From Escherichia coli (GTDB lineage Bacteria > Pseudomonadota > Gammaproteobacteria > Enterobacterales > Enterobacteriaceae), in the NCBI RefSeq assembly GCF_045037415.1, contig NZ_CP173438.1: a DNA stretch of 64,000 bases; one strand, 5' to 3'. The notes beneath the pieces were generated by a model. The model was not told the DNA's origin. It worked only from the letters and a program-made list of their open reading frames with translations, and made no database searches. The translations under genes and the position numbers were made by a program. Positions 29,661 through 56,925 of this stretch are shown one piece after another. Within the stretch, counting starts at the first letter, position 1. Every line of letters starts with the position of its first letter.

Positions 29661-30422
29661 ATGATTTTAAGTGCATTTTCTCTCGAAGGTAAAGTTGCGG
29701 TCGTCACTGGTTGTGATACTGGGCTGGGCCAGGGGATGGCGTTGGGGCTGGCGCAAGCGGGCTGTGACATTGTTGGCATTAACATCGTTGAACCGACTGA
29801 AACCATCAAGCAGGTCACGGCGCTGGGGCGTCGTTTTTTAAGCCTGACCGCCGATCTGCGAAAGATTGATGGCATTCCAGCACTGCTGGATCGCGCGGTA
29901 GCGGAGTTTGGTCATATTGATATCCTGGTGAATAACGCCGGATTGATTCGCCGCGAAGACGCTCTCGAATTCAGCGAAAAAGACTGGGACGATGTCATGA
30001 ACCTGAATATCAAGAGCGTATTCTTCATGTCTCAGGCAGCGGCGAAACACTTTATCGCGCAAGGCAATGGCGGCAAGATTATCAATATCGCGTCAATGCT
30101 CTCCTTCCAGGGCGGGATCCGTGTGCCTTCTTATACCGCATCAAAAAGCGGTGTGATGGGCGTGACGCGATTGATGGCGAACGAATGGGCTAAACACAAC
30201 ATTAATGTTAATGCGATAGCTCCGGGTTACATGGCGACCAACAATACTCAACAACTGCGGGCAGATGAACAACGTAGCGCGGAAATTCTCGACCGCATTC
30301 CAGCTGGCCGTTGGGGACTGCCGAGTGACCTGATGGGGCCGGTGGTGTTCCTTGCCTCCAGCGCTTCAGATTATGTGAATGGTTATACCATTGCCGTGGA
30401 TGGCGGTTGGCTGGCGCGTTAA
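29661..30422 (+). CDS. kduD: 2-dehydro-3-deoxy-D-gluconate 5-dehydrogenase (short-chain dehydrogenase)
   Basis: 253 aa; SDR glycine motif TGCDTGLG and catalytic YTASK. Confidence 0.93.
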   Translation: MILSAFSLEGKVAVVTGCDTGLGQGMALGLAQAGCDIVGINIVEPTETIKQVTALGRRFLSLTADLRKIDGIPALLDRAVAEFGHIDILVNNAGLIRREDALEFSEKDWDDVMNLNIKSVFFMSQAAAKHFIAQGNGGKIINIASMLSFQGGIRVPSYTASKSGVMGVTRLMANEWAKHNINVNAIAPGYMATNNTQQLRADEQRSAEILDRIPAGRWGLPSDLMGPVVFLASSASDYVNGYTIAVDGGWLAR

Positions 30423-30444
30423 TTCATTCCTCTTACTTTTATGA

Positions 30445-30468
30445 CCCTGTCGCATGGCAGGGTTTTTT
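30445..30468 (+). terminator. Rho-independent terminator after kduD
   Basis: CCCTG-tcgcatgg-CAGGG followed by TTTTTT. Confidence 0.65.
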
Positions 30469-30637
30469 ATACCTGTAGATCATCATAATCCATATCATGG
30501 TTATGAAATAATCCATATCAATTATCAATTGATGAACTTTATGAATTTTATCTGCTTTAAAATTAGGTGGTTAATAATAATCTCAATAATTCAACTTAAT
30601 TTGAAAATTGGAATATCCATCACATAACGACATGTCG

Positions 30638-30676
30638 TAGCAATTTAATCCATATTTATGCTATTTCCGACCTGAC
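30638..30676 (+). promoter_or_regulatory. AraC araI-like activator site of the araE promoter
   Basis: TAGCAATTTAATCCATA then TATGCTATTTCCGACCTGA; matches the TAGC-N7-TCCATA half-site and the I2-like ACCTGA. Confidence 0.5.
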
Positions 30677-30736
30677 ACCTGTGTGAATTGTTCACGTATT
30701 TTTTCACTATGTCTTACTCTCTGCTGGCAGGAAAAA

Positions 30737-32155
30737 ATGGTTACTATCAATACGGAATCTGCTTTAACGCCACGTCCTCTGCGGGATACGCGGCGTATGA
30801 ATATGTTTGTTTCGGTAGCTGCTGCGGTCGCAGGATTGTTATTTGGTCTTGATATCGGCGTAATCGCCGGAGCGTTGCCGTTCATTACCGATCACTTTGT
30901 GCTGACCAGTCGTTTGCAGGAATGGGTGGTCAGTAGCATGATGCTCGGTGCAGCAATTGGTGCGCTGTTTAATGGTTGGCTGTCGTTCCGCCTGGGGCGT
31001 AAATACAGCCTGATGGCGGGGGCCATCCTGTTTGTACTCGGTTCGATAGGGTCCGCTTTTGCGACCAGCGTAGAGATGTTAATCGCCGCTCGTGTGGTGT
31101 TGGGCATTGCTGTCGGGATCGCGTCTTACACCGCTCCTCTATATCTTTCTGAAATGGCAAGTGAAAACGTTCGCGGTAAGATGATCAGCATGTACCAGTT
31201 GATGGTCACTCTCGGCATCGTGCTGGCGTTTTTATCCGATACAGCGTTCAGTTATAGCGGTAACTGGCGCGCAATGTTGGGGGTTCTTGCTTTACCAGCA
31301 GTTCTGCTGATTATTCTGGTGGTCTTCCTGCCAAATAGCCCGCGCTGGCTGGCGGAAAAGGGGCGTCATATTGAGGCGGAAGAAGTATTGCGTATGCTGC
31401 GCGATACGTCGGAAAAAGCGCGAGAAGAACTCAACGAAATTCGCGAAAGCCTGAAGTTAAAACAGGGCGGTTGGGCACTGTTTAAGATCAACCGTAACGT
31501 CCGTCGTGCTGTATTTCTCGGTATGTTGTTGCAGGCGATGCAGCAGTTTACCGGTATGAACATCATCATGTACTACGCGCCACGTATCTTCAAAATGGCG
31601 GGCTTTACGACCACAGAACAACAGATGATTGCGACTCTGGTCGTGGGGCTGACCTTTATGTTCGCTACCTTCATTGCGGTCTTTACGGTAGATAAAGCAG
31701 GGCGTAAGCCGGCGCTGAAAATTGGTTTCAGCGTGATGGCGTTAGGCACTCTGGTGCTGGGTTACTGCCTGATGCAGTTTGATAACGGTACGGCTTCCAG
31801 TGGCTTGTCCTGGCTCTCTGTTGGCATGACGATGATGTGTATTGCCGGTTATGCGATGAGCGCCGCGCCAGTGGTGTGGATCTTGTGCTCTGAAATTCAG
31901 CCGCTGAAATGCCGCGATTTTGGCATCACCTGCTCAACGACGACAAACTGGGTGTCGAATATGATTATCGGCGCGACCTTCCTGACACTGCTTGATAGCA
32001 TTGGCGCTGCCGGTACGTTCTGGCTCTACACTGCGCTGAACATTGCGTTTGTGGGCATCACTTTCTGGCTCATTCCGGAAACCAAAAATGTCACGCTGGA
32101 ACATATCGAGCGCAAACTGATGGCAGGCGAAAAGTTGAGAAATATCGGCGTCTGA
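30737..32155 (+). CDS. araE: Arabinose:proton symporter (MFS sugar porter)
   Basis: Start at [24 protein letters not shown] (472 aa) rather than the upstream GTG of the 490-aa track ORF. Confidence 0.93.
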
Positions 32156-33898: not shown

Positions 33899-34019
33899 TA
33901 GCGCTCTCTCGCAATCCGGTAATCCATATCATTTTTGCATAGACTCGACATAAATCGATATTTTTTATTCTTTTTATGATGTGGCGTAATCATAAAAAAG
34001 CACTTATCTGGAGTTTGTT

Positions 34020-54036: not shown

Positions 54037-56925
54037 ATGCCCCGCAGCATCTGGTTCAAAGCATTATTGTTGTTTGTTGCCCTCTGGGCACCCTTAAGTC
54101 AGGCAGAAACGGGATGGCAGCCGATTCAGGAAACCATCCGTAAAAGTGATAAAGATAACCGCCAGTATCAGGCTATACGTCTGGATAACGGTATGGTGGT
54201 CTTACTGGTTTCTGATCCGCAGGCAGTTAAATCGCTCTCGGCGCTGGTGGTGCCCGTTGGGTCGCTGGAAGATCCTGAGGCGTACCAGGGGCTGGCACAT
54301 TACCTTGAACATATGAGTCTGATGGGGTCGAAAAAGTATCCGCAGGCTGACAGTCTGGCCGAATATCTCAAAATGCACGGCGGCAGTCACAATGCCAGCA
54401 CGGCACCGTATCGCACGGCTTTCTATCTGGAAGTTGAGAACGATGCCTTACCCGGTGCGGTAGACCGCCTGGCCGATGCTATTGCAGAACCCTTGCTCGA
54501 CAAGAAATACGCCGAACGTGAGCGTAATGCAGTGAATGCCGAATTAACCATGGCGCGTACGCGTGACGGGATGCGCATGGCACAGGTCAGCGCAGAAACC
54601 ATTAACCCGGCACACCCCGGTTCAAAGTTTTCTGGTGGTAACCTCGAAACTTTAAGCGACAAACCAGGTAATCCGGTACAGCAGGCGCTGAAAGATTTCC
54701 ACGAGAAGTACTATTCCGCCAATCTGATGAAGGCGGTTATTTACAGCAATAAACCGTTGCCGGAGTTGGCGAAAATGGCGGCGGACACCTTTGGTCGCGT
54801 GCCGAACAAAGAGAGCAAAAAACCGGAAATCACCGTGCCGGTAGTCACCGACGCGCAAAAGGGCATTATCATTCATTACGTCCCGGCGCTGCCGCGTAAA
54901 GTTCTGCGCGTTGAGTTTCGCATCGATAACAATTCAGCGAAGTTCCGTAGTAAAACGGATGAATTGATTACCTATCTGATTGGTAATCGCAGCCCTGGTA
55001 CACTTTCTGACTGGCTGCAAAAGCAGGGATTAGTTGAGGGCATTAGCGCCAATTCCGATCCTATCGTCAACGGCAACAGCGGCGTATTAGCGATCTCTGC
55101 GTCTTTAACCGATAAAGGTCTGGCGAATCGCGATCAGGTTGTGGCGGCCATTTTTAGCTACCTCAATCTGTTACGTGAAAAAGGGATCGATAAACAATAC
55201 TTCGATGAACTGGCGAATGTGCTGGATATCGACTTCCGTTATCCGTCAATCACCCGTGATATGGATTACGTCGAATGGCTGGCAGATACCATGATTCGCG
55301 TTCCTGTTGAGCATACACTGGATGCAGTCAATATTGCCGATCGGTACGACGCTAAAGCGGTAAAAGAACGTCTGGCGATGATGACGCCACAGAATGCGCG
55401 TATCTGGTATATCAGCCCGAAAGAGCCGCACAACAAAACGGCTTACTTTGTCGATGCGCCGTATCAGGTCGATAAAATTAGCGCACAAACTTTCGCTGAC
55501 TGGCAGAAAAAAGCCGCCAATATTGCGCTCTCCTTACCGGAGCTTAACCCCTATATTCCTGACGATTTCTCGCTGATTAAGTCAGAGAAGAAATACGACC
55601 ATCCAGAGTTGATTGTTGATGAGTCGAATCTGCGCGTGGTGTATGCGCCAAGCCGTTATTTTGCCAGCGAGCCCAAAGCTGATGTCAGCCTGATTTTGCG
55701 TAATCCGAAAGCCATGGACAGCGCCCGCAATCAGGTGATGTTTGCACTCAATGATTATCTCGCAGGGCTGGCGCTTGATCAGTTAAGCAACCAGGCGTCG
55801 GTTGGTGGCATAAGTTTTTCCACCAATGCTAACAACGGCCTTATGGTTAATGCTAATGGTTACACCCAGCGTCTGCCGCAGCTGTTCCAGGCTCTGCTGG
55901 AGGGCTACTTTAGCTATACCGCTACGGAAGATCAGCTTGAGCAGGCGAAGTCCTGGTATAACCAGATGATGGATTCCGCAGAAAAGGGCAAAGCGTTCGA
56001 GCAGGCGATTATGCCCGCGCAGATGCTCTCGCAAGTGCCGTACTTCTCGCGAGATGAACGGCGCAAAATTTTGCCCTCCATTACGTTGAAAGAGGTGCTG
56101 GCCTATCGCGACGCCTTAAAATCAGGGGCTAGACCAGAGTTTATGGTTATCGGCAACATGACTGAAGCCCAGGCAATAACGCTGGCACGCCATGTGCAAA
56201 AACAGTTGGGCGCTGATGGTTCAGAGTGGTGTCGTAACAAAGATGTCGTGGTCGATAAAAAACAATCCGTCATCTTTGAAAAAGCCGGTAACAGCACCGA
56301 CTCCGCACTGGCAGCGGTATTTGTACCGACTGGCTACGATGAATACACCAGCTCAGCGTATAGTTCTCTGTTGGGGCAGATCGTACAGCCGTGGTTCTAC
56401 AATCAGTTGCGTACCGAAGAACAGTTGGGCTATGCCGTGTTTGCGTTTCCAATGAGCGTGGGGCGTCAGTGGGGCATGGGCTTCCTTTTGCAAAGCAATG
56501 ATAAACAGCCTTCATTCTTGTGGGAGCGTTACAAGGCGTTTTTCCCAACCGCAGAGGCAAAATTGCGGGCGATGAAGCCAGAAGAGTTTGCGCAAATCCA
56601 GCAGGCGGTAATTACCCAGATGCTGCAGGCACCGCAAACGCTCGGCGAAGAAGCATCGAAGTTAAGTAAAGATTTCGATCGCGGCAATATGCGCTTCGAT
56701 TCGCGTGATAAAATCGTGGCCCAGATAAAACTGCTGACGCCGCAAAAAATTGCTGATTTCTTCCATCAGGCGGTGGTCGAGCCGCAAGGTATGGCTATTC
56801 TGTCGCAGATTTCCGGCAGCCAGAATGGGAAAGCCGAATATGTGCATCCTGAAGGCTGGAAAGTGTGGGAGAACGTCAGCGCGTTGCAGCAAACAATGCC
56901 CCTGATGAGTGAAAAGAATGAGTGA
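54037..56925 (+). CDS. ptrA: Periplasmic protease III (pitrilysin, M16 family)
   Basis: 962 aa; signal peptide; inverted zinc motif HYLEHM. Confidence 0.97.
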   Translation: MPRSIWFKALLLFVALWAPLSQAETGWQPIQETIRKSDKDNRQYQAIRLDNGMVVLLVSDPQAVKSLSALVVPVGSLEDPEAYQGLAHYLEHMSLMGSKKYPQADSLAEYLKMHGGSHNASTAPYRTAFYLEVENDALPGAVDRLADAIAEPLLDKKYAERERNAVNAELTMARTRDGMRMAQVSAETINPAHPGSKFSGGNLETLSDKPGNPVQQALKDFHEKYYSANLMKAVIYSNKPLPELAKMAADTFGRVPNKESKKPEITVPVVTDAQKGIIIHYVPALPRKVLRVEFRIDNNSAKFRSKTDELITYLIGNRSPGTLSDWLQKQGLVEGISANSDPIVNGNSGVLAISASLTDKGLANRDQVVAAIFSYLNLLREKGIDKQYFDELANVLDIDFRYPSITRDMDYVEWLADTMIRVPVEHTLDAVNIADRYDAKAVKERLAMMTPQNARIWYISPKEPHNKTAYFVDAPYQVDKISAQTFADWQKKAANIALSLPELNPYIPDDFSLIKSEKKYDHPELIVDESNLRVVYAPSRYFASEPKADVSLILRNPKAMDSARNQVMFALNDYLAGLALDQLSNQASVGGISFSTNANNGLMVNANGYTQRLPQLFQALLEGYFSYTATEDQLEQAKSWYNQMMDSAEKGKAFEQAIMPAQMLSQVPYFSRDERRKILPSITLKEVLAYRDALKSGARPEFMVIGNMTEAQAITLARHVQKQLGADGSEWCRNKDVVVDKKQSVIFEKAGNSTDSALAAVFVPTGYDEYTSSAYSSLLGQIVQPWFYNQLRTEEQLGYAVFAFPMSVGRQWGMGFLLQSNDKQPSFLWERYKAFFPTAEAKLRAMKPEEFAQIQQAVITQMLQAPQTLGEEASKLSKDFDRGNMRFDSRDKIVAQIKLLTPQKIADFFHQAVVEPQGMAILSQISGSQNGKAEYVHPEGWKVWENVSALQQTMPLMSEKNE

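Follow-up and report, generated by a model that had tools for sequence, protein, structure and literature searches.

Results

The kduD-araE intergenic region and the araE promoter

The window, by which we mean the whole 64-kb stretch of Escherichia coli chromosomal DNA that was analysed, has the gene order yqeF-kduI-kduD-araE-ygeA-lysR around the site of interest in the RefSeq annotation, and family models concur. A 421-bp query over the site is 100% identical to many E. coli genomes, in which the DNA is annotated as kduD and araE. kduD ends at 30422, and araE, the gene for the arabinose:H+ symporter, occupies 30737-32155 on the plus strand (RefSeq annotation of identical E. coli DNA; sugar porter family match, 4.5e-149). 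All of the boxes discussed below lie in the 314-bp intergenic region between these genes (30423-30736), across which K-12 MG1655 and the window differ at only 7 positions. The upstream end of this region holds an intrinsic terminator for kduD (30443-30470, plus strand), a hairpin followed by a T-run directly upstream of the first distal box. The terminator scan returned this 1 site with 0.1 expected, and most genera have a hairpin and T-run in the corresponding position. For structured RNA, a permissive Rfam scan over 30300-30850 yielded only a chance snoRNA match (E = 0.58).

The araE core promoter spans 30672-30702 on the plus strand, with a -35 element CTGACA at 30672-30677 and a -10 element TATTTT at 30697-30702, and the columns CTGAC and TA..TT are conserved in the alignment. 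Just upstream is an I1-like AraC half-site, TAGCAATTTAATCCATA (30638-30654, plus strand; box TCCATA at 30649), the sole exact instance of TAGC-N7-TCCATA in the window. Its AGC and TCCAT are invariant in 17/17 genera, and K-12 has CAGC at this position. An I2-like half-site, TGCTATTTCCGACCTGA (30659-30675, plus strand), follows 21 bp after I1 and overlaps the -35 CTGACA; it has the register and the ACCTGA of araI2, and its CTGAC is invariant. The preliminary description of this DNA, made from the letters alone, had named a promoter-proximal AraC site followed by an ACCTGA-containing half-site, and both are present, in a 21-bp register and conserved across genera. Judged by this register and conservation, the proximal pair is an araI1-araI2 arrangement, real and conserved.

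A CRP site, AATTGGAATATCCATCACATAA, lies at 30606-30627 on the plus strand, with its TCACA 29 bp before the I1 box. In E. coli it reads TGGAA-TATCCA-TCACA, with TGTAA in most genera, and has the TGTGA-N6-TCACA geometry; the GTCCATCACA portion is invariant in a 25-sequence alignment. The geometry of the araE promoter matches that of araBAD, whose regulatory sequence as used here was confirmed at 100% identity against E. coli genomes: I1 and I2 are 21 bp apart in both, as are O1L and O1R at araBAD, and the TCACA of the CRP site lies 29 bp before the I1 box in both. The classical proximal AraC and CRP sites of araE were reportedly described by Stoner and Schleif in 1983. By analogy with araBAD, where I2 ends at -35, the araE transcription start would fall at about 30709-30710, which would place the CRP site near -93.5 and the starts of the distal boxes at approximately -198 (D2) and -221 (D1).

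The preliminary description did not mention this CRP site. It noted a CRP-like sequence near the promoter, TGTGAATTGTTCACG, which lies at 30682-30696 on the plus strand, about 1 bp from the position that it implied, and it suspected that the likeness was coincidental. The suspicion was well founded. The sequence, TGTGA-ATTGT-TCACG, sits in the spacer between the -35 and -10 elements and has a 5-bp and not a 6-bp spacer of its own; K-12 reads CGTGAGTTGTTCACG here and lacks the TGTGA, nothing similar occurs in other genera, and the pairwise identity of this promoter spacer is 0.40. We therefore reject it as a CRP site and do not count it as a functional part of the promoter.

Two distal TCCATA boxes far upstream of I1

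The motif AATCCATATCA occurs twice in the distal part of the region, at 30487-30497 and 30510-30520. The pair had been pointed out, with a spacing of about 23 bp, in the preliminary description, and it is there exactly. The TCCATA cores, which we call D1 (30489) and D2 (30512), have a spacing of 23 bp, and the I1 box follows 160 bp after D1 and 137 bp after D2. D1, a candidate distal half-site of the O2 type, reads GATCATCATAA-TCCATAT (30478-30495, plus strand), with the conserved core TCCATAT at 30489-30495. The second distal box, D2, reads TTATGAAATAA-TCCATA (30501-30517, plus strand), with the core TCCATA at 30512-30517 and an A-rich run before it.

Within the window, these boxes do not stand out by number. 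TCCATA occurs 31 times with 23.7 expected, which is no enrichment, and TAGC-N7-TCCATA with up to 2 mismatches is found at a chance-level count; because the search for the full half-site consensus performs at chance level, scoring against that consensus cannot pick up sites that consist of the B-box only. That the two 11-mers are identical is an accident at the level of the strain: D2 of K-12 reads AATCCATATTA. The 12-mer TAATCCATATCA is the most repeated 12-mer of the window, with 4 copies, at 30486, 30509 and 33920 (plus strand) and at 55257 (minus strand). Those at 30486 and 30509 are D1 and D2, and K-12 is without the D2 copy. The copy at 33920 is in the lysR/lysA intergenic region, within a different conserved block, CCATATCATTTTTGCATAGAC, in which the first T varies between species, and that at 55257 is inside a 962-aa ORF (54037-56925). 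The four-fold repetition is probably a coincidence, with the two other copies unrelated to the araE boxes. Just after D2, at 30524-30533, there is a perfect 10-bp palindrome, ATCAATTGAT; K-12 has ATCAATTAAT at this place and other genera have nothing similar, so that a function is improbable.

D1 and D2 are conserved across core Enterobacteriaceae

We collected 80 araE loci from different species, each anchored on the proximal I1/I2 site. The core Enterobacteriaceae contribute 61 loci (AraE at least 89% identical), 2 of which end too near the gene, leaving 59 that are informative. D1 and D2 are both present, on the same strand as I1, in all 59 of these, and the distance between them is 23 bp in 58/59 and 33 bp in the remaining one (L020). 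This locus, from an uncultured Raoultella metagenome-assembled genome, has its boxes at distances of about 162 and 129 bp upstream of I1, with an insertion of roughly one helical turn between D1 and D2.

Among 17 genus representatives, one per genus, the mean pairwise identity is 100% for the TCCATAT of D1 and 95% for the TCCATA of D2, exceeding that of the I1 17-mer and of the CRP site (78% each), whereas it is 40% for the 16-bp spacer between D1 and D2 and 31-37% for their flanks. With a background of 72% A+T, the spacer and flank identities are at the random level. The TCCATAT of D1 is identical in 17/17 genera; in D2, TCCAT is found in 17/17, with A (14 genera) or G (3 genera) at position 6. 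On this comparative evidence, chance is excluded and D1 and D2 are under strong purifying selection. Loci such as those of Salmonella arizonae, K. indica, P. vulneris and Phytobacter have a gene other than kduD upstream of araE and retain the boxes, which therefore belong to araE. In the outgroups Cedecea, Franconibacter, Buttiauxella and Mangrovibacter there is one distal box instead of two, some 150-154 bp upstream. An overlapping tandem duplication of D1, TCCATATCCAT, with boxes 6 bp apart, is seen in Kluyvera ascorbata (L036), Enterobacter sp. Bisph1 (L059) and a Cedecea locus (L061).

Several other identities for the distal DNA were considered and rejected. A promoter in this region is not indicated, the 3 weak minus-strand consensus matches (1.8 expected) using unconserved flanking bases. 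The 23-bp start-to-start distance would suit the -35 and -10 elements of a sigma-70 promoter, but TCCATA matches TTGACA at 3/6 positions and TATAAT at 2/6, and on the other strand TATGGA is without the essential final T. A small ORF at 30454-30627 (57 aa) is rejected on its substitution-saturated flanks and on the occurrence of 10-bp indels. D1 of Enterobacter, TTATCCATA, is one mismatch off a DnaA box (TTATCCACA), but the TTA positions are unconserved in other genera, and the positions required for a NarL heptamer or for a HipB site are likewise not conserved.

The B-box is the conserved part of the distal boxes

The 17-bp AraC half-site comprises an A-box, (T)AGC, located 7 bp upstream of the B-box TCCATA. 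At the distal boxes the B-box alone is conserved, together with the following T in D1. The A-box is absent: the window has GATC (D1) and TTAT (D2) in its place, and these positions are unconserved. The exceptions upstream of D1 are half-site position 2, which is A in 15/17 genera, and position 3, which is T in 12/17; the binomial probability for A at position 2, computed for at least 14/17, is p ~1e-4. At D2, A is found at position 2 in 10/17 genera. Saturation mutagenesis of pBAD, published in 2025, found that araI1 and araO2 share only xAxxxxxxxxxTCCATA, and the araO2 mutations that raise expression map to TCCATA positions (PMC11983282). D1 fits this pattern common to I1 and araO2 in 15/17 genera. 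The direct-repeat distance between D1 and D2, 23 bp, departs from the 21 bp of adjacent AraC half-sites. The preliminary description had called the distal repeats AraC-like half-sites, which holds for the conserved B-box TCCATA but goes too far for the remainder, as they lack the TAGC A-box, are not full half-sites and are spaced at 23 and not 21 bp.

The spacing from the distal boxes to I1 falls into two classes about one helical turn apart

The D2-to-I1 distance falls either at 137-139 bp (46 loci) or at 127-129 bp (13 loci), with no intermediate value; the shorter class consists of Klebsiella, Raoultella, Kluyvera, Phytobacter and relatives. D1 is accordingly 160-162 or 150-152 bp from the I1 box. 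The step between the two classes and the additional 10 bp in the D1-D2 variant each come to about one helical turn; such steps would be predicted if the distal and proximal boxes had to keep the same orientation around the helix. Taking 10.5 bp per turn, distances of 211, 137.5 and 127 bp share one phase, and D2 to I1 amounts to 13.05-13.24 or 12.1-12.29 turns, compared with 20.1 for araO2 to araI1, although the classes may stem from only one to three indel events. Lee and Schleif reportedly arrived at an in vivo helical repeat of 11.1 bp in 1989. With that value, D2 to I1 is 12.3 turns and D1 to I1 is 14.4, which are non-integral, against 19.0 for araO2 to araI1. The distances of the distal box in the outgroups, 132, 150-154 and 187 bp, are scattered over several phases.

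araO2 as a positive control

The araO2 operator of araBAD served as a positive control. We compared the araC-araB regulatory regions of Klebsiella, Enterobacter, Cronobacter and Buttiauxella (L083-L087) with that of K-12, five genera in all. At araO2, TTGTCCATAT is invariant in the five genera and lies on the same strand as I1, the distance to I1 is 211 bp (212 in Cronobacter), and the DNA between O2 and O1 cannot be aligned. The operator reads GTCCATAT, with the core CAATTGTCCATAT. D1 of Klebsiella reads TCAATTGTCCATAT and shares the araO2 core CAATTGTCCATAT, and D1 and D2 do not differ from the araI1 and araO2 B-box, the following T included. As far as such a comparison of sequences goes, the araE distal boxes show the evolutionary signature seen at araO2. 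Unlike those before D1 of araE, the 11 bp preceding the O2 box (GAAACCAATTG) are largely conserved, which may reflect the location of O2 in the araC leader.

Box C and an AT-rich block within the D1-I1 interval

The CRP site contains a further TCCAT-type sequence, box C (TCCATC, 30616-30621, plus strand), which is invariant, extends over the spacer and right half of the site and precedes the I1 box by 33 bp. TCCAT is found at this distance in 61/61 core loci. Outgroups that have a single distal box, and so are without D2, are also without box C, such that D2 and box C co-occur. Box C may be an AraC half-site overlapping the CRP site or may simply belong to a conserved CRP site; we treat it only as a lead, because the co-occurrence may be one shared ancestral event and because CRP-site spacers at araBAD are also fairly conserved.

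Near the centre of the D1-I1 interval, at 30560-30575 on the plus strand, there is an AT-rich block, AAAT.A....ATTAA, that we tentatively describe as IHF-core-like. It is moderately conserved, in at least 11/13 genera of the 160-bp spacing class, and none is evident in Klebsiella or Kluyvera. Scanning for the IHF core WATCAANNNNTTR gave exact matches in Citrobacter (L004) and Kosakonia (L028) only, with 2 mismatches in E. coli.

Discussion

We favour a reading in which D1 and D2 serve as araO2-type operator half-sites for AraC, reduced to the B-box, that loop to I1; on the comparative sequence evidence we hold belief and doubt in this reading in roughly equal measure. We infer AraC as the binder, the formation of a loop, and repression of basal expression as its effect. 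Each distal box would offer only a B-box, the part read by a single helix-turn-helix of AraC's DNA-binding domain. When arabinose is absent, I1 would be held by one DNA-binding domain of an AraC dimer whose other domain reaches D2 or D1; the loop so closed, about 137 or 160 bp long and spanning the CRP site, would keep basal araE expression low and hold AraC ready at the promoter. Once arabinose is present, the dimer would let go of the distal box, occupy I1 and I2, and activate together with CRP at 30606-30627. The preliminary description had proposed a distal operator for AraC looping. This idea gains from the selection on the boxes, their placement on the I1 strand, their kept spacing and their araO2-like signature, and loses from the absent A-box and the 23-bp spacing of the boxes to one another.

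The last of these is the main internal difficulty of the looping reading: the invariant distance is 23 bp, versus 21 bp in every known adjacent AraC pair. A strict 23-bp spacing fits one complex that reads both boxes better than it fits two independent, alternative loop partners. An AraC dimer could thus occupy D1 and D2 with one DNA-binding domain on each and no looping to I1, acting as a local reservoir, a helper in activation or an architectural element. Such a dimer would be expected to produce the spacing found in 58/59 loci, the two boxes are directly repeated, as are those of I1-I2 and O1L-O1R, and AraC is said, after work by Carra and Schleif in 1993, to tolerate altered half-site spacing. 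Lacking A-boxes and mis-spaced by 2 bp, however, the pair should bind AraC poorly without a strong site such as I1; the outgroups have a single distal box, and the retention of the I1 spacing in classes about one turn apart would go unexplained if there were no proximal contact. We consider this reading rather unlikely. The same spacing, which is unlike that of known AraC pairs, and the conservation of only 6-7 bp per box with no A-box would also suit a different protein that recognises TCCATA(T) direct repeats two turns apart, the resemblance to the AraC B-box then being coincidental. No enterobacterial regulator that we know of has direct repeats of TCCATAT as its site, and other features speak against this reading: the conserved 7-mer is the I1 and O2 box of the very regulator already known at the araE promoter, the strand is that of I1, and the pattern is that of the araO2 control. 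This, too, we judge improbable. That the distal repeats are functionless chance occurrences in AT-rich intergenic DNA could be argued from the lack of TCCATA enrichment in the window and from the exact 12-mer at two unrelated places, but boxes that are invariant in 17 genera beside neighbours at 31-40% identity, at a fixed position and strand in 59/59 loci, leave it scarcely any credibility, and we regard it as refuted by the comparative data.

The looping reading could be elaborated with box C. In a compound AraC loop of four same-strand B-boxes (D1, D2, box C and I1) at araE of the core Enterobacteriaceae, two dimers would bridge the distal and proximal boxes, for instance pairing D1 with I1 (160 bp) and D2 with box C (104 bp), or D2 with I1 (137 bp) and D1 with box C (127 bp). 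In the uninduced state, AraC would thereby not only loop the promoter but also block the CRP site physically, possibly aided by an IHF-type bend at the loop centre, 30560-30575. We mention this as a speculative extension with little likelihood of being right.

The proposed araE loop resembles the araO2-araI1 loop in that the distal half-site is essentially TCCATA(T), is on the I1 strand and lies far upstream of I1-I2, with CRP 29 bp before the I1 box and with box and spacing fixed while the intervening DNA diverges. It differs in having two distal boxes 23 bp apart where araBAD has one, in its shorter putative loops of 137 and 160 bp versus 211 bp, and in the location of the boxes, which are in non-transcribed DNA after the kduD terminator, whereas araO2 is in the leader of a divergent gene; araE has neither a divergent promoter nor an O1-type operator. 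D1 and D2 are same-strand direct repeats of AraC-type boxes, as are araI1-araI2 and araO1L-araO1R, but those are 21 bp apart with at least one member having a TAGC or AGC A-box, and D1-D2 has neither feature. Short regulatory loops are familiar from other systems: in the gal repressosome, GalR closes a loop of about 113 bp whose apex is occupied by HU, an architectural protein in mid-loop, and the lac O1-O3 loop is 92 bp. The loops proposed here would be of this kind, roughly 100-160 bp, and the IHF-core-like AT block lies centrally in the D1-I1 interval; the gal and lac repressors belong to another family and use inverted-repeat operators, and the IHF-like block is only partial in E. coli.

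AraC looping at araBAD is a textbook example of bacterial action at a distance. To our knowledge, it has so far been treated as particular to araBAD and araC, and AraC repression has been described, in the work of the Schleif laboratory, only for araBAD and araC and not for araE, which counts against the looping reading. We found no description of the distal araE sites or their sequences in the open-access literature, and an earlier mention in primary papers is possible. The proximal AraC and CRP sites are known; what is probably new, on the present sequence comparisons, is a putative O2-type operator with two boxes, and with shorter loops, that would serve a second AraC-regulon promoter.

If the looping reading is correct, the promoter of the transporter would also be controlled by a loop, which bears on the very low basal level of AraE. 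The stochastic delay and the all-or-none induction shown by the arabinose system and by pBAD expression vectors are attributed to that low level. Heterogeneity in timing has been ascribed to the low basal number of transporters, and the quantitative characteristics of the araE promoter have been stated as not known (PMC3935871). The hypothesis is readily testable in a textbook system, where it would come as a modest surprise. If true, araE would offer another natural example, in which the loops are shorter and the distal boxes paired, for studying the choice of AraC between looping and adjacent binding.
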